This document shows, in pieces, positions 4,995 through 36,200 of a stretch of DNA of 37,399 nt. The stretch covers positions 1 to 37,399 of the forward strand of contig JABANN010000340.1 in the NCBI GenBank assembly GCA_013115125.1. Reading direction: 5' to 3'. This DNA comes from Perkinsus olseni. Its lineage: Eukaryota. The notes beneath the pieces were generated by a model. It ran no database searches, was not told where the DNA came from, and saw nothing but the letters and a program-made list of their open reading frames with translations. Position 1 is the stretch's first letter. Every line of letters begins with the position of its first letter. A program made the translations under genes and the position numbers.

Positions 4995-6023
4995 TTATTG
5001 GATGGTAACCCGAGAATGGCCGCCGAACATACCCTTGATGAGCTGATCGATGGTCTCGTCATCGAAGTCGCAGGCCTCAGCGGGGATGCCAGTGTCCACA
5101 TGAGGCCCGTCCAGATCCTGAGGTGCCATGAAGTGCGCCAACTTCTCGATGGGTTTATAGCGGAGCTTTCGGCCTTTGGATGCCCTTCGATCAACAACTC
5201 CCTTGTGTAACTGGACGCCCCGCTCGAGTTTCTTCCCAGCTCCGCCGCTACCATCTCTTGAGCTCACTACATCCTTAAGCATGAGTGCATACAGCCCAGA
5301 ATCATCATACACCTCAAGGTCAGCAGCGTTCGGATCCTCGTCGACCTCTTCATTCCACCGAGCCCCGATTCTAGTGCCGTAATGACCCTTCCGAGGATGG
5401 CATCTGGCCGCTTGGTCGGCACTCTCAAGCTGACGGCCAAGGGACCTGTCGAAGGCCTTGAACTTCGTCTTATTGCCACCGAGCGAGGTCTTCTCCTGCC
5501 ACTCCTCGGCCACCGATAAACAGAACGAGTTTACAGCGTCATTCATCGGCTTCATAAGCTCGTCCCACTCCTTCTCATCAGAAACCCTGTCCCTGTCCGT
5601 CTCGCCGAGGGTCCGGGCGAGCTCCTGGAGTTCGGGTATCTTCTCGGCGGCATCAAGCTGCAGCTTCAGGAGACTTCGTGCGACGTCATCCACGGCAGAG
5701 TCGTCGATCTCTTCTCCCTGCAGGTCATCCTTGAAAGCACGAGGGGGCAGCCTGGCAGAGTCTGCAAGGAGAGGCTGCAGCTTGATCCGAGTGGCCAGTG
5801 CCTTATCCCAAGCATCGAGAACGGCTACAGCCTGCTTGGGCGCCTCGACGTCCTGGATCTCCTGTGCAGTGCTGACTAACTTGATGTCCGACAGCTGTCG
5901 CTCAATGTCTTCAGGAATCTGCCCACCGACGCCCACCGGGCTGAGATCATCCCCAGAGTCGAAGGCCTCTTCATCATCACTCGTTATACTGGCTATCGAG
6001 GCGATCTCGCTGTCGTCGCTCAT
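4995..6023 (-). CDS. AATF: AATF/Bfr2 (TRAUB-domain) SSU processome factor, intronless, 342 aa
   Basis: Acidic N-terminus MSDDSEIAS... and the C-terminal AATF motifs YDDSGLYALMLKDVV and VDRRASKGRKLRYKPIEKLAHFMAP. Confidence 0.88.
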   Translation of the reverse strand: MSDDSEIASIASITSDDEEAFDSGDDLSPVGVGGQIPEDIERQLSDIKLVSTAQEIQDVEAPKQAVAVLDAWDKALATRIKLQPLLADSARLPPRAFKDDLQGEEIDDSAVDDVARSLLKLQLDAAEKIPELQELARTLGETDRDRVSDEKEWDELMKPMNDAVNSFCLSVAEEWQEKTSLGGNKTKFKAFDRSLGRQLESADQAARCHPRKGHYGTRIGARWNEEVDEDPNAADLEVYDDSGLYALMLKDVVSSRDGSGGAGKKLERGVQLHKGVVDRRASKGRKLRYKPIEKLAHFMAPQDLDGPHVDTGIPAEACDFDDETIDQLIKGMFGGHSRVTIQ

Positions 6024-6106
6024 AGGATAATGACAACTACACCTCGCTCCCTGCACACCCACCATTACGACACTCGAACACAAAAACGAGGCTTTGGAAG
6101 AGACAC

Positions 6107-8231
<2,125 letters not shown>

Positions 8232-8705: not shown

Positions 8706-10699
8706 ATGTCTAACGAGTATACTCTCAAGCATCTCCCCAACTACAACGGTAGCCAGGGTCCCCTTCTTACCATCGTTCTCGATGGCTATGGACTCGGACG
8801 TCAGGATGACAGCGATTGCGTCCATCTTGCTGACCCCACCTACATGGAGAAGCTTGCCAGCGATGTAAGTTCGCGTGGGGTCGTCGTCACCTCTTGAGTG
8901 CCTTGTCACACCACCTGTGGTTTTCCAAAGTGGATTTCGTCGCTCTTTAGGCTCAAGCCAAGAATCTCTACTGCAGCTTGAAGGCTCACGGTACCGCCGT
9001 TGGCCTCCCCAGCGACGGCGACATGGGAAACTCCGAAGTCGGCCATAACGCTCTTGGTTGCGGTCAGTTGGTTGCTCAGGGTAAGCATCTTGCAGTCGGT
9101 CTATCGCGATCACTGTGATTTTGCCAGGTGCTAAGCTCGTCGCCAACTGCCTCGATGATGGCTCTCTCTTCAAGTCCAAGAACTTCACTCACATCGTTGA
9201 TGAACTCAAGGACGGCACTGGACGCACTCTCCACATGTTCGGTCTTCTCTCTGATGGTAACATCCACTCCCACATCGCTCATGTCGAGAAGATCATGAAG
9301 GAGGTCGCCAAGGAGGGTGTCACCGATGTTCGTCTCCACATTCTTACTGATGGTCGTGATGTCGGAGCCATGTCTGCCCCCACCTACGTCGAGCGCATCG
9401 AGAAGTGCCTCGCCGAGTGCGGTCCCAACTTCAAGATCGCCTCAGGTGGCGGACGTATGCAGGTCACTATGGACCGTTACAACTCCGATTGGAACATCGT
9501 CAAGAGAGGTTATGATGCTATGTGCTTCGGTATCGTTGACCCTGCCATCAACCCCGAGTGCGCCAAGGGCTGGACTGGTATGTACAAGGACGCTACCACC
9601 GCCATCATGGAGTGCCGCAAGATGTTCCCTGAGAAGACTGATCAGAACTACCCTCCCTTCGTCATTGTTGATGAGAACGGCAAGCCTGTCGGACCCGTTA
9701 AGGACGGCGATGTTGTCATCTGCTTCAACTTCCGTGGTGACCGTTCCATCCAGATCAGTCGTGCCTTCACTGAGCCCAACTTCGACTGCTTCGATCGCCG
9801 TAACGCCCCCAAGGTTGACTACTACGGTATGTTGATTTACGATAACGACCAGATGATCCCCAAACAGTCTCTTGCCCCCAACCCGGATATCACTCACGTC
9901 TTGTCCGAGTACATGTTGGCCCAGGGCATCAAGATGTACGCCTGCGCCGAGACTCACAAGTTCGGTCACGTCACCTTCTTCTGGAATGGCAACCGTTCTG
10001 GCTACCTCGACCCCAAGATGGAGCTCTACGAGGAAGTCACTTCCGAGTCGAATGACGCCATCCAGTACAACCCCGCAATGAAGGCCCGCGAGGTCACCAA
10101 CAAGGTTGTCTCCGCCATTGAGAAGGACGACTTCAAGTTCTACCGTGTTAACATCGCCAATGGTGATATGGTTGGCCATACCGGTCTTATCCCCCAGACC
10201 ATCGAGACCGTCAATGTCATCGACGAGTGCGTGAAGAAGATGGTTGAAGCCGTAAGTTCGGGTGGCCGCTGGTTGGACCTCATGGGATCGAAATCGCCTC
10301 TAGTCGGTCTGTATCGTACGTGACGGTATTGTATGTTGTCGTAGGTCACCGCTCGTAACGGTATCGTTGTGATCACCGCCGATCACGGTAACTGCGAGGA
10401 GATGAAGGACAAGAAGGGCAACATCAAGACCAGTCATACTCTCAACGCTATTCCCTTCATCATTGTTGATCCTAACTGTAAGTGGAAAGTCTTCTCCAGC
10501 TTATCATACTCGCGTGGCGCTTGCGATTTCTTTTTTCACCTCAGGCAACGGCAAGTACGTCGTTGACCCCACCGAGGATCCCAGCAGTATTGTGGAGCCG
10601 GTTGCCGGTATCACCAACGTTGCCGCTACTCTTTGCAATCTTCTCGGTTACGAGCAGCCTTCCTTGTACCGCAAGTCTCTCCTCAAGTTCCAAGAGTAG
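8706..10699 (+). CDS. gpmI: 2,3-bisphosphoglycerate-independent phosphoglycerate mutase, copy 1; exons 8706-8864, 8951-9080, 9128-10251, 10345-10477, 10545-10699
   Basis: Motifs [32 protein letters not shown] (catalytic Ser), [68 protein letters not shown]. All introns are GT-AG and in frame. Confidence 0.96.
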
Positions 10700-11131: not shown

Positions 11132-13155
11132 ATGGCGAACGAGTTCACCCTCAAACGTCTACCTAACTACTCCGGCCCTCAAGGACCTTTGCTCGTCATA
11201 GTCCTTGATGGGTTCGGAATTGGCCATAAGAACGACAGCGACTGCGTCTATTTGGCAGACCCGGCGTACATGCTGGGGCTTCGTCATAGTGTGAGTGCAT
11301 AACCCGCTCGAGCAGCTCCTTGAGAGAAGGGTGATAAAATCTGGAATTCTCATGTCGTCCGATATGATGTCACGATGTGGCTAGTCTTTACTTGTAGGCT
11401 TACGACAAGCATCTCTACTGCACCCTGAAGGCGCACGGCATGGCGGTTGGCCTTCCGACGGATGACGACATGGGGAACTCAGAAGTCGGCCACAATGCTC
11501 TGGGATGTGGGGAGCTGGTGGCACAAGGTGAGCCTCCTGCTCCTGTGGAAGTCGAGGAAGTCATGGATATCAGGTGCGAAGCTGGTGAATCAGTCCATTC
11601 AGGATGGCTCTCTGTTCAAGTCTAAGAACTTCACCAACATCGTTGATGAGCTCAAGGACGGCACTGGACGTACTCTTCACATGTTCGGTCTTCTCTCTGA
11701 CGGCAACATCCACTCCCACATCGCTCACGTGGAGAAAGTCCTGAAAGGAGTGGCCAAGGAGGGTTGCACCGATGTTCGTCTTCACATCCTTACTGATGGC
11801 CGTGACGTTGGTTCAATGTCCGCGCTGGACTACGTTGAACGTCTCGAGAAGTGCCTCGCCGAGTGCGGTCCTAACTTCAAGATCGCCTCTGGTGGCGGAC
11901 GTATGCAGGTCACTATGGACCGTTACAACTCCGATTGGAACATCGTCAAGAGAGGTTATGATGCTATGTGCTTCGGTATCGTTGACCCTGCCATCAACCC
12001 CGAGTGCCAGAGAGGATGGGTAGGAATGTACAAGGACGCCACCACCGCCATAAAGGAAGTCCGCAAGATGTTCCCCGAGAAGACTGATCAGAACTACCCT
12101 CCCTTCGTCATTGTTGATGAGAACGGCAAGCCTGTCGGACCCGTTAAGGACGGCGATGTTGTCATCTGCTTCAACTTCCGTGGTGACCGTTCCATCCAGA
12201 TCAGTCGTGCCTTCACTGAGCCCAACTTTGACTCCTTCGATCGCCGTAAAGCGCCTAAGGTTGATTACTACGGTATGTTGATCTACGATAACGACCTTAT
12301 GATCCCCAAGCAGTCCTTGGTTCCAAACCCTGACATCTCACGCGTCCTCTCTGAGTATATGCTCACTCAGGGTATTAAGATGTACGCCTGCGCCGAGACT
12401 CACAAGTTCGGTCATGTCACCTTCTTCTGGAATGGCAATCGTTCGGGCTACCTCGACCCCAAGATGGAGCTTTACGAGGAAGTCACTTCTGAGCCTAACG
12501 ACGCAATACCTGACAACCCGGCCATGAAGGCTCGCGAGGTTACCGCAAAGGTTGTGTCTGCCATCGACAAAAATGAGTTCAAGTTCTACCGTGTTAACAT
12601 CGCCAACGGTGATATGGTCGGCCATACCGGTCTTATCCCCCAGACCATCGAGACCGTCCACGTCATCGATGAGTGCGTGAAGAAGATGGTTGAAGCCGTA
12701 AGTTCGGGTGGCCGCTGGTTGGACCTCATGAGAACTCGCGTCTCTGTATTGTACATGTCGGTACTGTATGTTGTCGTAGGTCACCGCTCGTAACGGCATC
12801 GTCGTGATCACCGCCGATCACGGTAACTGCGAGGAGATGATGGACAAGAAGGGCAACATCAAGACCAGCCATACTCTCAACGCCGTGCCGTTCCTCATCG
12901 TTGATCCTAACTGTGAGTCTGGGATGCTGTTGAAGACCATGACTTTTAGCACGTTTACTCATCTTGACGTTCCTCCGTGTCGACGTCGTTGCCTTTGCGT
13001 CAGGTAACGGGAAGTACATAGTCAACCCCACGCAGGACCCAGACATCGAGGAGCCAGTGGCTGGTCTGACGAACGTTGCCGCTTCCATCTGCAATCTTCT
13101 GGGCTACGAACCACCGCCGCATTACCGGAAGTCCCTCATCGAGTTCACTGCATAA
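11132..13155 (+). CDS. gpmI: iPGAM copy 2; exons 11132-11290, 11398-11527, 11574-12697, 12780-12912, 13004-13155
   Basis: Same motifs and identical intron positions as copy 1. Confidence 0.96.
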
Positions 13156-21204: not shown

Positions 21205-24200
21205 ATGCGTGATGGCCGTAGTGCATGTGCCGAGGCGTCGTGGAGCCTGTGTATTGTGAGTATGCTTTTCCATTGCGTCACTGGAAGTATTCAGTCCCCT
21301 ATCAATTCACCTGAGCCTTTGTCTACGTCGTTCTCATCGCTGGAGGTTGCCACCTCAGTTTGTTTCCAATGCGTCTCTTACTCTCCTCTTTACCGTTCCT
21401 TGGATGGTTACAAGTGTTGTACATGGGATGGGGCCCCTGGTACTCAGACGAGACGAGGAATCTGGTACGTTCGCAGTGCCCAACGTCCGAGCGTCTGAAT
21501 GGCGTCCCGTAGGCTGCGTACAGTAGTCACAATGACTGGCAGCAGATCGCTTTTCCCGTGTCTGTTCACCTAGGTGAGGACCGCTGCCTACACTAGCGAG
21601 ATCACGACTTTAAATCGAGGTCAGCACCGGACCTACAGACTGTCCTTTCGGCGGTATCACCCGGGGTACGGCGGACGAGATCAGACGGCCTTCTTATTCA
21701 TACACGGACACCTGGTGAGACAAACCCTTGCTCTTCCTCAAGTCACTGCTCATGCGTTGTGCTCATCTCAGGGCAGTTACCGTCAAGGTTTCAACATAGC
21801 CGAGTGGTGTACGACGAATCGAAGTGTTTGGTATACCATAGACTACGCCCCAGCGTCTCTCGCAGCATGCCGAGCATGCGAGATTCAATCCCAGGCTGAT
21901 TACGCGGCGACGGTCCTCCAGGATTTGAAGGAGCATCATCGCCAGGTTGTAGTGGTCGCCCACTCTATGGGTGGCATCGTCAGCGACCTCGCCCTCGCCC
22001 GCCTCGACGACGACCTCGATGCCGTCAGCAGCATACATCTCAATGTTCCATGGTCTGCCGGGCATCCGATTTTCACGCATCCCGCCTTGGCCATGGCCGT
22101 TTTCGGAAGACGTGGCAAAGCGAGTACTGGGCGAGTACGCATATCTTTCTCAAGCGGGCTGCGAGATAACGTAGTACCGACAATATTCACGGAGCCGGGA
22201 ATTCTCGATTTGAGCCGAGTGAGGAACGTCTATGAGAGTTTCACCCATGTCAATCTTCTGTTTTCGAGGCCCGTCCTCAGCATGTTCAAAGAGGAGCTTT
22301 TGCCGCTCATTTTGGAAGATCAGAGTGCTGTCTCAAGAGCAGCGGGAAAAATCCACGACCATCTCTCTGACGGGTTAGGGCAGCGCAAGCGGCCCAGGCA
22401 GCTGCACAGCAGCTCGCGCGATGATACTGGAGAAAGTATCGCAATGGCGATCGACCGGATACGAAGAATCGAACCAGGAACGACCATCCTTCAGGTGGAG
22501 GGGGTTCGAGGCTACTGGGAAATCAACGCCGTCAGCGTGATGCCGAAAACAGCGCTTCCTGCCAACAAGGTAGAATCTGGAAGTGCTGGCGATGACTTCA
22601 ATACGGCTGATTTGACAAGACCTGTGCTGAGCGTTTCCATCAAGTCTCTACAAGGTGATTGGATTCCTGTGCCGTGTGACTACATCGCACACCCGCGGAG
22701 GATCAGCCTCTGCATAACGAATCGTCAAGCGCATGAGGAGGAGTCGGCCAGCTCTATCGGCAGCGTCGTCATTCGTGTCGAAACAGAATCCCCTGTTCTG
22801 GTCTTACTAACCTGTACACCCAGGAGACAGGCTGAACTGGGTGTCTTGGGCGGCAAACTAGACTTGAGTACCGAAGTTGTTTGCTCGGTTGCGAAGGGGC
22901 CGCTCCCGTTGATAGCCGACAAGGTCCGAGGTTTGGCAATCGTTCCTGCTGGGCACGCGCACGGGAGCGCACCTTCTTCGACCGACCATGACTACTTAAT
23001 TGTGCGGACACCGCAGCATGAGCTATACTTGGCTCCATTGCGGTTAACATTCAGCGTAGACCTAGAGCGACTAGTAGTGAACGCAGTGCGTGAAGGGACG
23101 GGTGAGAAGACCAACGATCCCCCGACCCTTCAAGGTACCTCCCGCAGGCCGTCACCTCAGGTTCGGCGATAGTAACCTTCCTGGTCGCGTTGAGGCCCAA
23201 TACGGATTGTTTGGGGCTGGCTTTAACTGTGCTCCTTGTAGGGATCGTGACTTGTCTCTCGAGCAGCGGGGCGTGGGAGGTGAGATCCCCTTGCTGACAG
23301 ACGACTTCGTCGCGCCATATTTTCTATCATTGCCGCTCCCCAGGCCATTCCCGCACTTATCCTGATTGGCGCATCAGCGGCAGCAGGCCTGAGTCTGAGC
23401 TGCGTATTACCCAGGAAGTATCGTCCGGTCCCGAGACGCGTGCTGGTCTTCTTGGTGGTTTTCACCCCTGTGGCAACTCCCTTGTCCATTCTCTTCTGTG
23501 GTCTTTGTCACCTATTCGCCGGGAGTCCGGCGTGGGCTGTAGCTTCAGGTGAGCTCAAGGGACATTTCCTTTTTCCGCTGCTGTTTGAAAGAACCCCTGG
23601 AATGGCATACTATCAACGTTTTCACCTCTTTCGGGATCCGCCGAGAAAGTTAGATTCCAGCCGCTGAACGTTTCCCAATATTTTCAAAACAAAACCATTG
23701 GTGTTGAGGACAGAAGGAGACAGTTCGACGGATGCCGGTTCAAAGGGATAGGACCTTTCGCAGAGGAACGGTAAACCTGGAACCCGAGCGTGGCTGAAAA
23801 TTAGGCACATCTCCGCGGGATTTTGTTCTTCGCTGAACATCTAACTTTCGCTAGCAAAGTAGCTCCGATTAACCAGTGTGTTCAGACTATATCATTCATT
23901 AATGCTAGAAGGCCCTATGATAGAAACCTTCCTCGGTTCAACTATCAGCACTCCCATTTGATGAGATTTACACCGTTCACTCATCTGTCAGTCCTCGTGA
24001 GTCACCAATCCATACTATGCTTCGCTGTTCACATATGGTACACAAGGGAAGTGCCCAGCATGATCGGATTGGATGCCCAATCGGTTCTCGATAACGTCAT
24101 GGCTCTATCGAGTATCGTCTTACTCTGGCATGTAAGAATCATCCAGTGGATTGTCATGATGATCGATAACCTCGTTTCCTGTCAGGACTCCGAGTCCGCA

Positions 24201-24642: not shown

Positions 24643-27600
24643 TTACTTAGCCTTCTTCTTAGCTTCAGCTAGAGCTACTTGGAAGACATCGACCCAGGCC
24701 CATTTAGACCTCTTGTTATCGTCCACTCCCCAAGGCCATGGGGTCTTCCTCTTTCCTGTGTAATGCTCCTCGATTTTCTTGGCGAGAGCCAGGCATTTGC
24801 CGTCCTCGAATGGACGGCAAATGACCTGCACACAGTCCGCTGAGGTACGAAGGTGCTGCAATAACCTCAGCCCCACCTGTATGCCGATGGGTAGCTCATC
24901 CTTGTTGTTTCTGACTGTCACCGTAACCGATGGGAATCCCAAAAGATTCGATGGCCATATGTACTTGAGCATGTTTGAGACCAAAGTACCGTCGAACAGA
25001 CCTGGAATTCTGCTCAAGGGACAGACGTCTTCTCGGGGATGGCCAGAGGAACCGTATAAAGGACTGATCCTGTACTAGGACTATTCTCTTCGTCTTACCA
25101 TATGAGCTAACTCCTGATCCGATCGGCTGCGCGGGAATCGCCATGGCCGGAGTCATAATCACATCCATCTTCTCGAACTGCTCCATCCTGACAGATCAAC
25201 AGCCAACCTCTGGAGGTACGATGAAGCTAACTGCACTCCACGTACCATTTCTCCGAAGCCCACCTCTTCACCTTCTCTGCTGCAGCGATAGCCTCCTCGT
25301 CGATTTCACTTCCGAGAGCGAGGGAAATCTGAGTTAAAGTGCTTTCCTCGTTGGTGAAAGGATCTCCTGCTGAGGATAATAATATTATCATAATACCTTC
25401 GTGTTCGGCTCGAGTATGCTATATTCGTCGTCCTTATGGGTTTGATGAAATTCAGCGGCGATGGTCAGAGCTGAAGTATTTGCGAGAGACAAAGGGATAG
25501 CGAACAATCCGAGGGGTAGATCTTTACTGTGAGCTAAAGCTTGATCTTTCCAGTGGGTCATGACAAAGTTATCCTTGATACTCCACCCCGGCTGCTCTTG
25601 AATCCAATCACGGACTTCGTAGAACATCTGAAGGTTGTAATATTCCGTTGGACTTCGGCAGTTCAGCTGTGACGATATACTCACCGTCTCGATCTCAGGA
25701 TCGCTATCATGCACCCAGGCAGTATCATAACCGATGGTGAAGTTGGGGTTCTTCTCGTACAGCGGAGCGAAATTGATTTTCGGCATGGGGACTTCGAACT
25801 GGTCGCGGTAGACCTTGTCGTAGAAGTGGTCACCTGACAGCGCACAATTAGATTGTTCCTGTCATAGCTTCTCCAACCCACCCTGGTTCTTAGTATTGGC
25901 GATCACGCTCATGACGATGGCTGCGTCGGCGACGTTAGCAGTGATCGGACCACAGTGGAGTGTGGTGAATACCTCGGTCTCAGCGTTGTGGTATCTGACC
26001 TGAAGACGGCGGCGAGCGCGTGCAAACGATACACAACGGAGACGTCGACTTACTGTGCCGAAAGTTGGGATAGCTCCGTCGACGCCAGACCACGAAGCCG
26101 GATCACGAACTGATCCACCTCCGTCGAATCCAATGGCGAATGGGAACTGACAAGATACTCCCTCTTCCAAGCAAAGATAGATTTTCGCTCACAAGTCCCA
26201 AGGCCACCCCAGTAGCGCTGCCGCTGGAACTGCCACCGGTATAGCGGGTACGGTCGAAAGCATTCAGAGGTCCGTGGTACCAGACTGATGAGAAAGTCAA
26301 CCGAATACGTCATGGCAAGGGGTAGGCGGGAGCTAACGGACCATTGTATCCAACAGGGCTGATACCATATTCATGCATCACGCTTGTACCGAAGAGTATA
26401 GCTCCAGCATCGAGGAGGGCTTGTACGACTGGATCGTTCTTGGTCTATCATGATGACGGTGTTAGTCAGTCTGTGGAAGAAGAAGTGTACTTACGGCGGG
26501 TCTGGCCAGGCGAGGGTTCTTCGAGTTCCTAGGATTGGTTCCCACGAGTTCCGTGAAGTTTTGTATCTGAACCCCGCGAACTGCGAAAGTGAATGATCGT
26601 TTTCTCAGAACTCCCGGGCTACACTCATTTCATCTTTGACAATGAACGGTATGCCGTCCAACTTGGACAATTGCTCGCCACGCTCGTAGCGTAACTTGCT
26701 TGCTTGGGCCGCCTTCTTGACTGTCGACCAAGGAGTTTGCTCTACCATGAAGTGAAACTCCTCATCCAGAGTGATCATCCACTCGTAAACAGTCTGCACG
26801 AGGAAAACGTGAAGGTTGGTCATCAAAGGTGAGAAGGCCTACGCCCGCAACGTCTACTGGACTAAGCCGGCCTTCCTTGTATGCGTTGTGGTACTCCTCG
26901 ATCGAGTGATAGGTTCTTATGCTGCGTCGGTCAAGGATTCCGTCCTGATTATAATAAGTCTCCAATTAACAAGAGCACGCGAACCACTAGCGGCGGACTC
27001 ACTTGGCTCGGATTCGAATCAGATCCCGCTTCCGATGATCTAGCTTCCTCGTCTGACAGATAAGAAGATGATGATGAATTGAAAAGCCCTTGGACACGGG
27101 ATTGTCGGTGCATTGAAGGAACCCGTCCTTGAGTCTCACCAATCTTGTAAATGGGCCACTTCATCCTCTCGACATCGAGTCCTGCGGCGAAGACCTTTAG
27201 TTCGCTAACCTGATGGATATCCACTACAGCGAGGATGACGCCACCATGCGGTCAACAGGTTGAACAGTTGAGGACGGGTTTTGTATACAGAGATACTGTA
27301 AGTTATCTCAGATAACCAAGTAAACTTACTCCGATATCCTTGAAGGTCTTTCTGGATACGAGTCCTCGTACATTCCGTCTCAGGAAACTGTTACCAGTAA
27401 CGAGGGAGCCAGCGGCCTGAATGGGGAGGTGTTTATCTACACTTCCCCATATCTACTCCTCCCAGCATGGCGACGGTGAGCGCTACTGAAGATCGGTGGT
27501 GACAAGGACTTCTCACTCGCAGAGGGAGGCCAGTCATTGGCACTAGGTTCATGGCTTTGAAGTCGTAGTTCTCAGCGGACTGTGCCCTTGCTTCGGTGGC

Positions 27601-28826: not shown

Positions 28827-29094
28827 TCTGTGATAGACTTTCTATCGAAAAAGGAAATCGGAACCTAGCGGAAGATTTCCGCTATTGGTAGAGCGAGACT
28901 CGGCGGCTGTCGGATAGAATAATTTTAGAGACGGCGCGAGGCCTGACAATCTACTGTTTAAAAATCTTTGATCGACAAACGTTTCTCTCGCAGCTGTTGG
29001 ATGAGTCCCATAGGAACGACATATGGTTCTCTATGAGAGAAACAACATAATTTGGTTTCACCGGAATGACTATGGTAGTTCCATCTCGGACGAA

Positions 29095-32000
29095 TCACAG
29101 TAATTCATGCTTGAAAATCTCCGGCTTGGCCCTTGACGCTTCCGTCCTTGCTTGGAAGTCACTGGCCACCTTCATCAGTCTGTCGTCTTCCCAATGCCGG
29201 CCGATGATCTGAACACGTCAGAATACATCCAAGAGCTGATGAGCCAGCATGAGCGTCGTCAGACCTGCAAGCCTATGGGCATTCCCTCATCATCCACACC
29301 CATCGGGACGCTTATGGAAGGATAACCGAGCAAGTTGGTAACCCACGTGGAACGAAGCAACTTCTCTTCGAGATTCGGATCGAACGGGCCTAATCGTGAA
29401 TTGATCGAAACATAGGGAGATCCGATCGGCGCGCCTTACGGTGATTGAAGTAATCCTCCGGGATGATTGGTGCGGTTTCATAAACAGTGGGAACGGCCAC
29501 AAAATCGACAGTTCGGAATAGAGCCTCCCTGAAGTGCAACATCAATGATGGTATCACCCTTGACAAACTATATGATAATTGTTATATATCTCTTTCTGTG
29601 CATGGCACCCAAATGAGGCAGAGGTAAGAGTCTAACTCAGCCGGTGCTGGCGTTAGGCTGTCAACTCACACACATGGTATCACTGGAGTCGTGCAGACGT
29701 TTCGAGGAGTCCGAGGTTACGCGATCACAGTCCTTACCATTTGCCCATAGCCCAGCCTCTCACAGCTGCCACCGCCTCGCTCTTCCTCTGCGACTTTGAG
29801 ATCTGCCTGGCCAGAGCTATCGACATCTGAGAATGATGCTCTATGGCAGTTGACCCAGGGTAAGGAGAACTGAAGGGCCCCACCTGAGAACTCCTCTCGT
29901 AGCTAGAGAGACTTCCGTTACGAAGCAGCTCCCCATACTCAGCAGCAAGGGAGAATACTAAACACACGAGTCCGTATCCACACTCGGTAATCGTGCAGGG
30001 CTCACTTTGCGTCTTCTGCTGACCAGCCATCTGTGGCATGGTGAAGTACTTGAACTTCCAACCCGGCATTTTCTCGACGGCGCCGTAGAAAGCCTAGTGG
30101 GAACGAATCCGACCGCTACAAGCATGGTAAATCCCACCTTGATAACCGATTTGGAGCAAGAGTCCACCCAGGCTCGGTAAATGCCAACCGTCACCGTGGT
30201 TTTGGGAGGGTGGGTGAAAGCTCTTAGATGCATCCTCGGCACACCAGTTTGGTTGAACTCTTTCTTGTATAGAGAATCGTACAAGCTTTCTTTCCCTATA
30301 CCACGAGGACGGAACCATTTCATCGCAGGTAGACTGATGGGCCCCAAACGTAAGCTAAGTTGAACTATCTCGCAGCGGATTCGCTTTCCTCACTGGGTCT
30401 AACTCGCCAAGAAGCTCACAACTCATTGCTCTCGGCATCTCAGAGGTAGCGAAATGGTGAGAACTGCGGTTCACATCGCCAGACTATCCCCCCTAGCCAA
30501 GCAGCGGTCCTCCCCCTACCTCCATTCTCAGCTATCACGGCCATAACATGAGCGGCATCTTCAGCGTTGGCAGTAATTGGCCCCAGGTGAACGTTGGTGA
30601 AAATCTCTGCAAGAGGACCATCAAGGGGAACCTGAAGAGGTCCGATGAGGTCCACAAATCCCCACCGCGCCACCGCGCTGAACGGCACGCCCATCGTTAG
30701 TGGGTTCCGCTGCTCCTTATCATTGAATACAACGTCTGACGAGCTCAGAAAGGGACCTCAGTCAAGAGGCCATGCAGGGGGTGACGGGACTACAGCGTCG
30801 TTGGCGTCGCTGACGCTTCCACCGCCAAAATCCAAGAGGAGCCTTCTGGAGGAGACACATGCTTACCCTGCCGTAGGTCGGGGCCATGCCTACCACACCA
30901 GTAAGGGCGGCTGGGCTACGGTTGCATCCATTGGCATCCGTGCCGATCGCGAATGGGACCTACGATAGAGCATCCGAGGAGTTCCACCCCTCCGGATTCG
31001 GCCTACCAATCCCATGGCCACCGCGACGGCGATCCCTGAGGAGCTCCCTCCAGTGAAACACTTGGGATTGTGCGGGTTCAGAGGACCCTTCTTCCACCCT
31101 GAAAGGCGGGCCGTCAACGTCGCACAAGCTATCACTACTTACCGTTGAATCCCGTTGCACTCAGTCCGAGCTCACTCTGAGTGCCGACTCCGATCAGGAT
31201 CGCTCCTTGGCTGAGCAGCCTGGCCACTACACGATCATGCTGCTCCTAAGAGGCCGGTGTTAAACCATCGAGGTTCGTGTTAATGAGAGCTCTCACTGCA
31301 GGATGTACGGTCCATCCAACCTTGCTGTCGGTTCTCCTGCCGGCCATCGTCCGGATACCCTTAACCTATGGTCGAATAAGACGATTCAACCAGCCGGGGT
31401 CCCATCCCGTTGTGCTCACATTGATATCATTCTTTACCATGAAGGTGACCCCATCCAGCATGGACAAAGGCTGGCCTGCTGCGAACCGGGCCTTGCTGGC
31501 CTCGGCCATCGCGAGGACCTCCTTGCGTGGCAACAGCTCTTCAACAGCATTCACCACTCGGTTCAACCGGACCGCTGCCTCCATAGCGCCCTGAAAGGCT
31601 CGATCGTCGAGTGGCAGCTCGACTGGAGGCTCCTCAGCGAGCCCACCTCAGCCACAGTGACGGGGTCAGCGGAACCGGAACGGAAGGCCCTATGCAGATC
31701 TTCAATGGACGTATAAACTCGCTTCTTCCCTCGGGGACCGAAGTAGCGTGTTACATTCTGAGATAGGCACGCCCGCTTCACACGGTCGCCAAACAGTTAG
31801 GCTCACATTCTGAAGGGATGCTTCCTCTTCCTTGCTGTAGCGCAGGGCCTCGGAGTGGGCCTTCTCGCCTGACAGGAAAATCGCCGAAGCTGCGATGTGA
31901 CTCACTGAGGCCTACTCAAACGTCTGAGAGGGCGGTCCAGTGGAGGGTATCGGGACGAGTTAACTTCAGTCCCCCAACGCTCGAGGCATCGGCCCTGAGA

Positions 32001-32370
32001 GATATTCGCTGAAGAAGGAAGTGCGAAGCTCCAACTTACACCGAACTTGTAGATGGTGTCAGCTCTCGCGGGCGCCGAAAACCATCTCCCTAGGAGGAAC
32101 GCGCTCATCTGAGAGGGTCCAGTAAGGCCTCGATTCGTACGTCGGCGTAGAAAGAGATCGCCGCCCTCCCCACCTTGAGGGTGACTCCAGAATAGCGAAT
32201 ATGCTGGCCTTCCCTCATGTTAAACCGAGCAGTCTCTAACTCGTCGCAAACGACGCCAAATCCGAGGACCTGCGAGAAGGTTACCGAACATAAGGTGCCT
32301 CGAAGCTTACCTTGGCAGGTCGCGTGACGAGCAGAAGCAATGGCGATATCAATAGTCGGAAACTGGGCAT
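29095..32370 (-). CDS. Divergent amidase-signature protein 2 (Cys at the nucleophile position) with predicted signal peptide
   Basis: [25 protein letters not shown]..., [86 protein letters not shown]...[21 protein letters not shown]...FKHELL*. Confidence 0.88.
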
Positions 32371-33248: not shown

Positions 33249-36200
33249 TTAACGGGCGTGATGCACGCCGCTTGATTCCTGAATAACATCAATCCATTGC
33301 TCTGGATGTTCTCTCTGTCCCTCGAAATGCTCCTCGATTTTCCTGGCGATGGACAAGCATTTGCCGTCCTCAAATGGACGACAGATCATCTGTACACAAT
33401 CTGTGAAGGTTTGAAGACGCCGAGTCAATCTCAGCCCCACCTGTATGCCGATGGGTAGGTCATCCTTGTTGTTCTTGATGGTCACCGTCACCGATGGAAA
33501 TCCCGCAAGATTCGCCGGCCATATGTACCTCGTCATGATCGAAACCAAGGTAACGTTGAATAGACCTGAAGATCCAGCACAGGGTTCTCAATCCCAGTGG
33601 CTAATTCTCTTTGCCCTACCATATTTATTTACCCCCTTCTGTATGATCTGTGGCGGAATCGCCATGGACGGTGTCATCACCGCGTCCATTTTCTCGAACT
33701 GTTCCAGCCTGAATGCTCGGAAATAATCCCCATGGCTACGAATCATCCTCACCATCGCTCCGAGGCCCACTTCTTCACCTTCTCCGCCGCTTCGATGATT
33801 CCTTCATCAACTTCGCTCCCGAGATCAAGGGAGATCTGCCCGGGCAAGCAACCTCGCGGTACCACTGGAAGGGCCAGTCCATACTCACCTTGGTGTTCGG
33901 CTCTAGAATATCAATAACATCGTTCTTGTGAGTTTGATGGAATTCAGAACCGATGGTCAAGGCTGAGGAAGGTACGGATGATGATGATGATGCTCGAGCC
34001 CATGTTCTGGCGGCTACTGTGAGATATGGCCTGCTCGTTCCAATGAGTCATGACAAAGTTATCCTTGATACTCCACCCCGGCTGCTGGTGAATCCAATCA
34101 CGGACGTCGTAGAACATCTGATGAAGGTTGTAATATTCCGTTGGACTTCGACAGTTCAGCTGTGACGATATACTCACCGCCTCGATCTCAGGATCGCTAT
34201 CATGCACCCAGGCAGTATCATAGCCGATGGTGAAGGTTTTCTGGCACGGCGGAGCGAAATTGATCTTCGGCATCGGAACACCGAACATCCCCTGGTAGAC
34301 CTTATCATAGAAGTGCTTACCTATCATCGGCGCGACATCCGGACTGACTGCTCACCCCAACCGAGTTTCTCTGACCCACCTTGGTTTTTAGTATTGGCCA
34401 TGACGCTCAGGACGATGGCTGCATCGTCAGCGTTGGTTGTTATCGGACCACAGTGTAGTGTGGTAAAAATTCCAGTCTCATCATTCTCGAATTTGACCTG
34501 GAGAAGACGGCAGCAGCTTCACCGGTTATATCGAGGAGGAGGAGGAGGAGGAGGTCGAACCGCTCCGAAGTTCGACCAACGCTAAACGAGCGATTCTTTC
34601 GAACAGAGACACAACCTTACTGCGCCGAAGGTTGCGATGGCCCCAACGACGCCAGACCATGCCGATGGGTCTCTAACCGATCCGCCTCCGTCGAATCCAA
34701 TAGCAAATGTGAACTGAAAGAAGACTAGCTCATCCAAGGACGAGTTCACTTCAAGGCGTTGCCTCTTACAAGTCCCAAGGCCACCCCAGTAGCGCTGCCG
34801 CTGGAACTGCCACCGGTATAGCGGGTACGGTCGAAAGCATTCAGAGGTCCGTGGTACCAGACTGATGAGAAAGTCAACCAAATACGTCATGGCAAGGGGT
34901 AGGCGGGAGCTAACGGACCATTGTATCCAACAGGGCTGATACCATATTCATGCATCACGCTTGTACCGAAGAGTATAGCTCCAGCATCGAGGAGGGCTTG
35001 TACGACTGGATCGTTCTTGGTCTATCATGATGACGGTGTTAGTCAGTCTGTGGAAGAAGAAGTGTACTTACGGCGGGTCTGGCCAGGCGAGGGTTCTTCG
35101 AGTTCCTAGGATTGGTTCCCACGAGTTCCATCAAATGCTCAACCTGAGGGAGCACCATCGTGACCATCCATCCGCCCCCTGGCTCCTGGATACACTCATC
35201 TCTTCCTTAATGATGAATAGAAGGCCGTCCAGCTTGGACAAGGGCTTGCCGCATTTGTAGCGCTGTGAGCTGGCTGAGGCAGCCTGCTGAATTGATTGCC
35301 AATCGGCAAACTCTGCCATAAAGTGGAAGCTCTTATTCAGCAACTTCGCCTGATTGTAAACGACCTGCAAGATAAAATAGTGGGAGTTGGCAAGTAATGA
35401 ACCATGCACTCACGCCAGCGACGTCTAATGGGTCGAGCGCGCCTTGCAGGAACGCATGATGGTAGTCCTCGATGGAGTAGTAGGGTCGGGGGCCGGGTCC
35501 AGTGAGGTCTTCTCCCTAATCACAATTCTCTTGACAGCCAGCGTGCCGCAACGGCTGGCCTTTGGTAAGAGGTTCACCTTGCTGGGGTCTTGATCTACGG
35601 CGTCCGATGGGCTGGCCTGTTTGCCTGGGAGGAACACGGAGGACAGCGGAGCCGAAGCGGACTAATTTCCGTTGTAAATTTTGATGAACGGAAGCCACCA
35701 TAACAATCATCAGTCGACTTACTCAATCTGTAAAACGGCCATTTCAACCTTCCTTCAAGAGTATCAGCGAAGGTCTTGAGAGCAGGCACCTGAGAGGTAC
35801 AAACTGATATCAGGAGTTGCACCGAAGATGGTATGCAGCTCGACCGTCGGGAGCGACCAGCACGACCAGAAAACCTCGACTCACTCCTATGTCTTTGAAG
35901 GTCTTCTTCGCTACGAGTGAGCGTATCGTCCTCTTGATAAAATTGGTTCCTGTCATCGCGTAGGCAGCGAGCTGAGGCAGCAGTATCCATCCACACAGCA
36001 CCCGGCCGCCCGATGCATCCTTATCATCTCACCTTCAACGGTATTCCAGTCAGCGGCATCACGTTCATGGCTTTTAGGTCATAGTTGTCAGCAGATTGCC
36101 TTTGTGCGTCTGTCAGCTGGGCAGTAGATTCCTAGAAAAAAAACATCACGCGGCTTTTGCCTCGCTGGAACACACTCGCGACTAAACTTGGTGCTATTTG

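Follow-up and report, generated by a model that had tools for sequence, protein, structure and literature searches.

In a stretch of 37,399 nucleotides of Perkinsus olseni DNA (contig JABANN010000340.1 of assembly GCA_013115125.1), referred to here as the window, the minus strand carries three amidase-signature genes, whose GGSSSG motifs start at 26237, 31051 and 34814. The two outer genes, amidase 1 and amidase 3, carry the canonical loop GFDGGGSVRDP (starts at 26122 and 34689), as an earlier note on this DNA had stated. The middle gene, amidase 2, is the subject of the current work. The amidase-signature family, to which FAAH, GatA, allophanate hydrolase, nylon hydrolases and urethanases belong, is defined by its Ser-cisSer-Lys triad. 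At the nucleophile loop of amidase 2, the minus strand reads GAT GCC AAT GGA TGC AAC CGT, or D-A-N-G-C-N-R, with a cysteine codon (TGC, 30926-30924) at the place of the serine nucleophile. The positions of the amidase genes and of the main parts of amidase 2 are listed in Table 1.

Table 1. Positions of the amidase genes in the window and of the main parts of amidase 2
Feature	Position	Strand	Basis and remarks
Amidase 1 (paralogue)	24739..26808, partial extent	-	tblastn; GFDGGGSVRDP and GGSSSG; nucleophile Ser codon TCA
Amidase 2 coding region	29095..32370	-	model of 19 exons, 18 introns and 617 residues; stop codon ends at 29095
First exon of amidase 2 (inferred)	32311..32370	-	hydrophobic, signal-peptide-like start; homology to P0003, outside the displayed RNA joints
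Second exon of amidase 2	32174..32269	-	matches P0003 residues 14-46
Catalytic Lys exon (FMVKND)	31420..31590	-	Pfam profile positions 10-59; AAG 31432-31434
GGSSSG exon	31007..31099	-	Pfam profile positions 118-142; cis-Ser codon 31043-31045
Intron between GGSSSG exon and nucleophile exon	30960..31006, 47 nt	-	joint in X7 and X8; GTAGGCCG...TATCGTAG
Nucleophile-loop exon	30867..30959	-	Pfam Amidase profile positions 143-173; 31 residues
Cys316 codon TGC	30924..30926	-	opposite Ser178 of S. aureus GatA; opposite Ser (6dhv) or Ala (8eww)
Amidase 3 (paralogue)	33300..35488, partial extent	-	tblastn; GFDGGGSVRDP and GGSSSG; nucleophile Ser codon TCG

The cysteine occupies the exact position of the nucleophile. 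The nucleophile exon aligns without a gap to residues 167-197 of S. aureus GatA, where the cysteine stands opposite Ser178, taken here to be the nucleophile of that enzyme; gapless alignments were also obtained to four other solved GatA/AtzE chains. Through the orthologue P0003, described below, the cysteine falls opposite Ser305 of Arabidopsis FAAH in 6dhv and opposite Ala in 8eww, whose title reads 'mutant S305A'. The spacing from cis-Ser to cysteine is 24 residues, which is the family rule for a serine nucleophile and presumably also the distance between Ser217 and Ser241 of FAAH. In an alignment of 131 sequences, the nucleophile column contains Ser in 127, Cys in three and Pro in one; the cis-Ser column contains Ser in 130, including the amidase 2 protein, and the catalytic Lys column contains Lys in 127 and a gap in four. 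Measured against PF01425, amidase 2 has the required Lys and cis-Ser and carries Cys instead of the nucleophilic Ser. The catalytic residues of the 617-residue model are Lys212, cis-Ser292 and Cys316. Both amidase 2 and P0003 keep the Lys, the cis-Ser, GGS(S/T)SG, GTD and the Arg after the nucleophile. The proposals of the earlier note that the cysteine sits at the nucleophile position and that the Lys of FMVKND (AAG, 31434-31432) and the GGSS serines are retained were confirmed in this way.

The loop is brought together with the GGSSSG motif by splicing. The intron that the earlier note had removed (31006-30960, GTAGGC...CGTAG) appears as a joint in contigs of two sequencing runs, X7 and X8, and its removal restores the signature without a gap because the flanking exons correspond to profile positions 118-142 and then 143-173. 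These two runs were taken as transcript contigs since all spliced joints are present in them; the run records do not label them as RNA. Sixteen splice joints occur in the X7 and X8 contigs, 15 of them among those listed, and all 15 listed joints are of the GT..AG type on the minus strand, giving 15 introns between 29209 and 31915. The spliced contigs that span amidase 2 are 2142 nucleotides (X7) and 2130 nucleotides (X8, word depth 162) in length, come from two studies and contain no differing letters. In each of the two, the piece 30865-30957 includes the TGC codon, with no other letter found there, which agrees with the codon as read directly from the DNA. Three introns on the minus strand (29529-29737, 30296-30519 and 30632-30866) are 209-235 nucleotides long, and the other 12 RNA-supported introns are 44-57 nucleotides; the longest, 30632-30866 with 235 nucleotides, directly follows the nucleophile exon and is among the RNA-supported joints.

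The 5' introns (31995-32039, 32109-32173 and 32270-32310) and the ATG at 32370 were placed by splice signals and homology to P0003. When the exons are joined by their coordinates, the frame stays open through all 19 and ends in a normal amidase C-terminus, where the last Pfam Amidase match covers profile positions 401-434; the earlier statement that the exons splice in frame to such a terminus is correct. Two small exons on the minus strand (31916-31994 and 31807-31868) add 47 residues near the N-terminus relative to P0003. They are missing from the P. chesapeaki model, in which IYKFG joins NVTRFF directly. Both borders of exon 31807-31868 and the 3' border of exon 31916-31994 are supported by RNA joints, and the 5' border of the latter (intron 31995-32039) belongs to the part placed by splice signals and homology.

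Altogether 14 sequencing runs match the amidase 2 stretch. Six DNA runs from two studies contain all of the sampled words, and this DNA may itself derive from some of these six. Over positions 28900-32100, runs X11 and X13, which are labelled as another organism, contain short spliced pieces that match amidase 2 exactly and lie outside the Cys codon; these pieces fit parasite transcripts within host-derived samples, and the stretches of the gene that the two runs leave uncovered carry no information. Amidase 2 is an intact, spliced and transcribed gene. Frameshifts or a lack of expression, which the earlier note had named as grounds for giving up the idea, did not appear, the frame being open and the spliced contigs coming from two studies.

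A cysteine at this position might also arise from a sequencing or assembly error, from a private allele or from a decaying pseudogene. The agreement of the RNA contigs of two studies on this codon, the sampled words of the six DNA runs and the open frame of 19 exons all oppose this explanation, and so does an orthologue from a second species. The 31-residue nucleophile exon was searched by HMMER against 1.84 billion representative sequences, and 62 matches were obtained at E <= 0.001. The amidase loop is present in 40 of them, with Ser at the nucleophile in 38 and Cys in two. The remaining 22, which matched in multiple stretches, proved to be GTDANG-repeat proteins with neither GGSS nor the amidase loop and were rejected. 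One of the two Cys matches is P0003, a protein of 561 residues with the source name 'hypothetical protein FOL47_000183 [Perkinsus chesapeaki]', whose nucleophile loop reads GTDGNGCNRIPA. It is 59% identical to the amidase 2 protein (330 of 558 aligned positions) and 64% identical over the domain, and its tblastn segments stop at the exon borders of amidase 2. P0003 shares the cysteine; therefore, the change is old and conserved, predates the split of the two species and is not a private allele.

Some search results could be read in favour of an artefact. The first two word-index searches, each made with a single exon, gave no orthologue: none of 12 candidates scored for the query of 41 residues, and none of 44 for that of 57 residues. 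This is attributed to the shortness of the queries and is not taken as absence. The word-index protein search with P0003 returned itself as the sole Perkinsus protein, followed by amidases at 24-42% identity, mostly bacterial by name, with no second Perkinsus orthologue. Nevertheless, the RNA contigs and the orthologue essentially exclude an artefact or a pseudogene, and this explanation is regarded as extremely improbable.

Comparison of the two orthologues shows where the constraint lies. The best-conserved stretch of 21 residues begins at the cysteine (90%), and stretches of the same length around the Lys and the substrate-side loops come next (86%). The other Cys match of the HMMER search, P0034 (435 aa), has the loop GTDTGGCLRIPA, with GTDTGGCLR; it is an N-terminally truncated amidase in which the Lys region is absent, and its nearest Atlas clusters are ordinary amidases. 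Judged by its sequence, P0034 looks like a second, independent natural Cys case. A further homologue, P0174 (380 aa), has Pro at the nucleophile (GTDTGGPVRVPA) and keeps the Lys and the cis-Ser; it is likely a pseudoenzyme.

The composition of the loop in the 131 sequences qualifies one part of the earlier note, in which the oxyanion-hole loop was described as rebuilt. An Asn at the second position before the nucleophile is present in 18 homologues that otherwise have Ser, including the solved enzyme 6c62 (loop TNGS), so that description was overstated and only the Cys and the Asn following it are unusual. Asn immediately after the nucleophile occurs in only two sequences, the Cys proteins amidase 2 and P0003. 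The other sequences have Ile (98), Val (27), Thr (2), Leu (1) or Ala (1) at this position. In the aligned sequences, the actual change is thus a two-residue signature, with Cys-Asn replacing Ser-Ile/Val, and the Asn looks like co-adaptation rather than decay. This Asn also forms an N-R-S glycosylation sequon in amidase 2 (model residues 317-319, region 30921-30923); the orthologue reads N-R-I and has no sequon.

Membership in the family is clear from both Pfam and structural comparisons. The nucleophile exon by itself matches Pfam Amidase (PF01425) with 33.3-36.8 bits at a cut-off of 27, and five of the 53 stop-free pieces of the gene region match the same family collinearly, at profile positions 9-61, 79-109, 118-143, 143-176 and 401-434. 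Searches with the whole protein and with the fold were made on P0003 as a proxy for the amidase 2 protein. P0003 matches Pfam Amidase with 206 bits over profile positions 7-444. Among solved structures, Arabidopsis FAAH is nearest to it in sequence (6dhv; E 2.6e-54, residues 76-556 against 122-600), and the next-best solved family follows at E 1.7e-30. An AlphaFold2 model of P0003, built from an alignment of 108 sequences, has a predicted template modelling score (pTM) of 0.83 and a mean predicted local distance difference test (pLDDT) of 77.7. Blocks of 10 residues around the Cys reach pLDDT 95-97, and the N-terminal 76 residues remain below 50. The chains of Arabidopsis FAAH lead the Foldseek search with this model, at template modelling (TM) scores of 0.75-0.78 and 28% identity, and are followed by GatA, AtzE, peptide amidase and others; amidase-signature enzymes lead the 109 PDB matches at E <= 0.001. 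The modelled P0003 is confidently assigned to the amidase-signature fold.

The N-terminus bears on where the protein may work. P0003 begins with MSRLLALLALPLSVSG, and the ATG of amidase 2 at 32370 gives a matching hydrophobic start, followed by FGV-x-CD as in P0003. By homology and hydropathy, the N-terminus of amidase 2 looks like a cleavable signal peptide, and the protein would probably act either within the secretory pathway or outside the parasite cell. The term 'secreted' in the earlier note is therefore supported in part: the hydrophobic, signal-peptide-like start agrees with it, but the exon encoding this start was placed through the N-terminus of P0003 and lies outside the RNA joints seen.

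The relationship of amidase 2 to its neighbours gives some information on the age of the Cys lineage. Amidase 1 and amidase 3 are recent duplicates of one another, with 71-91% DNA identity (24749-26552 against 33313-35129, both on the minus strand). DNA similarity of amidase 2 to either of them is below detection; at the protein level, 26-58% identity was found over the tblastn segments, and intron positions are held in common. The Cys lineage is an old paralogue, because the adjoining Ser paralogues are much more distant from amidase 2 than P0003 is. A possible homology of the N-terminal region of amidase 2 to those of its two neighbours was rejected, the matches being at chance level. No match of the amidase 2 gene to plasmids was found by megablast.

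The rest of the window is eukaryotic in character, with an AATF/TRAUB homologue (4995-6134, minus strand), two tandem genes of cofactor-independent phosphoglycerate mutase (iPGM) and many short GT..AG introns. The iPGM genes (8948-10690 and 11395-13146, plus strand; Pfam iPGM_N and Metalloenzyme) are 83% identical in DNA across about 1.77 kb. A long open frame at 21574-23172 (plus strand) has a weak PGAP1-like alpha/beta-hydrolase match. Direct repeats occupy positions 1-1083; they recur about every 190 bp, and the copies are 77-98% identical.

The function of amidase 2 may be considered on this basis. The protein is given about an even chance of being a catalytically active amidase or transacylase of the secretory pathway, with a Cys-cisSer-Lys triad. 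Amidase 2 would then be a plant-FAAH-like member of the family in which the nucleophilic Ser has become Cys while Lys212 and cis-Ser292 are kept. The Lys/cis-Ser relay would deprotonate the thiol of the cysteine, and the thiol would attack an acyl-amide or related carbonyl, or the carbon of a nitrile. A thioester (or thioimidate) acyl-enzyme would form and would be resolved by water or an amine. Many hydrolase folds exist in Ser versions and also work with Cys as a competent nucleophile, and thioester acyl-enzymes favour aminolysis, as in the engineered Ser-to-Cys ligases derived from subtilisin. By analogy with those ligases, the thioester intermediate of amidase 2 could favour transfer to amines over hydrolysis. 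Nitrile chemistry could also open; in the available text of PMC8393822, it is proposed for the accessory Cys found in signature amidases of the CX3C type. The link to lipid amides is putative and comes only from the position of plant FAAH as the nearest relative of solved structure. The data show directly how the gene is built, that it is transcribed, where the Cys lies, that a second species has kept it, and which fold the orthologue adopts; that amidase 2 is catalytically competent, forms a thioester, acts on a given class of substrate and is secreted is inferred.

An active enzyme is favoured because only the nucleophile has changed, and to a residue still able to attack; because the relay residues and the loop are visibly constrained in two species; and because a unique neighbouring change, the Asn, co-occurs with the Cys. 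The same features must be compared with those expected of a pseudoenzyme, in which a FAAH-like pocket binds an acyl-amide, another ligand or a protein partner without turnover, the triad being inactivated or greatly slowed by the Ser-to-Cys change. Such a pseudoenzyme is the main rival explanation and the less likely of the two. Its nucleophile is not Ser, the Asn that follows is unique to the two Cys proteins, the two adjoining canonical Ser paralogues could supply the ordinary activity, and non-catalytic members of the family exist, such as plant Toc64 and Tse8, the latter found among the PDB matches. Dead enzymes, however, commonly lose several catalytic residues; in amidase 2, a single residue of the triad is altered, and to the one replacement that can still act as a nucleophile. 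Both species retain the Lys, the cis-Ser, GTD and the Arg at an overall identity of 59%, and the catalytic residues lie in stretches that rank with the best conserved of the two orthologues (76-90% identity).

Several points nonetheless weigh against an active thiol enzyme. Engineered Ser-to-Cys swaps, such as thiolsubtilisin and malonamidase E2 S155C, usually cripple amide hydrolysis, which also agrees with a pseudoenzyme. Strong conservation of the loop would also be expected of a protein that only binds. Nearly all homologues (125 of 131) have Ile or Val where the Asn follows the Cys, and this Asn might disturb the loop. Secreted proteins with a free catalytic thiol are easily oxidised, and the signal peptide itself is deduced from homology and hydropathy. 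In the data reached, the Cys version is known from two species only. Conservation favours an active enzyme over a pseudoenzyme only moderately, and the sequence data cannot separate the two.

In another explanation, amidase 2 is an active enzyme whose Cys serves as a regulatory or redox switch and not simply as a substitute nucleophile; for instance, reversible oxidation or a disulfide might gate it, or the cis-Ser or another residue might attack instead. Three Cys are common to amidase 2 and P0003 (28/21, 316/261 and 419/363), and the protein probably enters the oxidising secretory pathway. An accessory Cys centre beside the Ser has moreover been proposed for the CX3C signature amidases in the accessible portion of PMC8393822. 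On the other hand, both the 617-residue model and P0003 lack a CX3C motif (C-x-x-x-C), the Cys lies exactly in the nucleophile column, and no other candidate nucleophile is evident. A redox or regulatory switch is considered quite unlikely.

The fold, the family and two-thirds of the triad are ordinary in amidase 2; the conserved, expressed swap of the nucleophile is not. In the literature, no natural amidase-signature member with a Cys nucleophile was found among the papers listed, although subscription journals were mostly uncovered, so this is not proof of absence. The sole mention of a Cys-cisSer-Lys arrangement found concerns the accessory CX3C Cys, at a different site and with the Ser kept, in the part of PMC8393822 that is available. 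The literature searches yielded nothing on amidase-signature pseudoenzymes or on Ser replaced by cysteine, nothing relevant on malonamidase S155C among the papers listed, nothing relevant by title or abstract on Perkinsus amidases and nothing on a Perkinsus fatty acid amide hydrolase.

In the most far-reaching form of the active reading, amidase 2 would be the first thiol-type member of the amidase-signature family from nature. It would combine a Cys-cisSer-Lys triad with a co-adapted Asn, its thioester intermediate would shift the chemistry to transacylation or aminolysis, or to nitrile or thioester substrates, and Perkinsus-like parasites would secrete it against acyl-amide signals of the host or of bacteria during infection. 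This fuller proposal is doubtful. If amidase 2 is active, such a natural Cys version would reveal how a thiol is handled by the Lys/cis-Ser relay, would provide a natural template for engineering thioester-forming, ligase-like variants of the amidase-signature fold, and would suggest that mollusc parasites have a so far unstudied activity related to lipid amides, probably a secreted one. If inactive, it would be a clean case of a pseudoenzyme made by the most conservative substitution possible.

Among known systems, Arabidopsis FAAH (6dhv; S305A mutant in 8eww and 8ey1) resembles amidase 2 in the Lys, the GGSSSG cis-Ser and the GTDxxG-x-R-x-P loop, with similarity running through the C-terminal half. 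Amidase 2 differs in having Cys for Ser305 and Asn for the Val after it. The N-terminal regions also appear to differ. That of plant FAAH forms a membrane-binding cap, according to the accessible text of PMC10169808, whereas P0003 and amidase 2 seem to have a short, signal-peptide-like N-terminus followed by a region of low confidence (pLDDT <50 for residues 1-76 of the P0003 model).

Two other groups offer partial parallels in chemistry. For the CX3C signature amidases of Rhodococcus rhodochrous J1 and Sulfolobus solfataricus, the available portion of PMC8393822 proposes an accessory Cys-cisSer-Lys centre in which Cys is the nucleophile for nitriles. Unlike in amidase 2, the canonical Ser is kept there and the Cys belongs to a separate CX3C motif, as far as that portion describes the subgroup (PMC8393822). 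ClbL, an amidase-signature enzyme from the colibactin pathway, makes amide bonds rather than breaking them and takes thioesters as its substrates, as described in the accessible part of bioRxiv 10.1101/567248. Its structure (8es6), a Foldseek match to the P0003 model at rank 37, shows that the fold is capable of transacylation, but ClbL is bacterial and belongs to a biosynthetic assembly line. It was rejected as a precedent for the Cys, since the family is described with a Ser-cisSer-Lys triad, and no Cys nucleophile of ClbL is mentioned, in that same part (bioRxiv 10.1101/567248).

The closest parallels to the substitution itself are laboratory mutants. Residues 144-172 of the malonamidase E2 structure 1o9q align to residues 1-29 of the query, with residue 155 opposite the Cys of amidase 2. 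This structure is presumably that of the S155C mutant. Malonamidase E2 S155C, thiolsubtilisin and subtiligase share the same nucleophile swap, but as laboratory mutants they lack co-adapted neighbours. Tse8 (6te4), found among the PDB sequence matches, and Toc64 are precedents of the amidase-signature fold used without catalysis. Tse8 reportedly keeps the Ser triad, and the nucleophile of Toc64 is said to be replaced by a residue incapable of attack. In contrast to both, the replacement residue in amidase 2 is a Cys, which is still able to attack.

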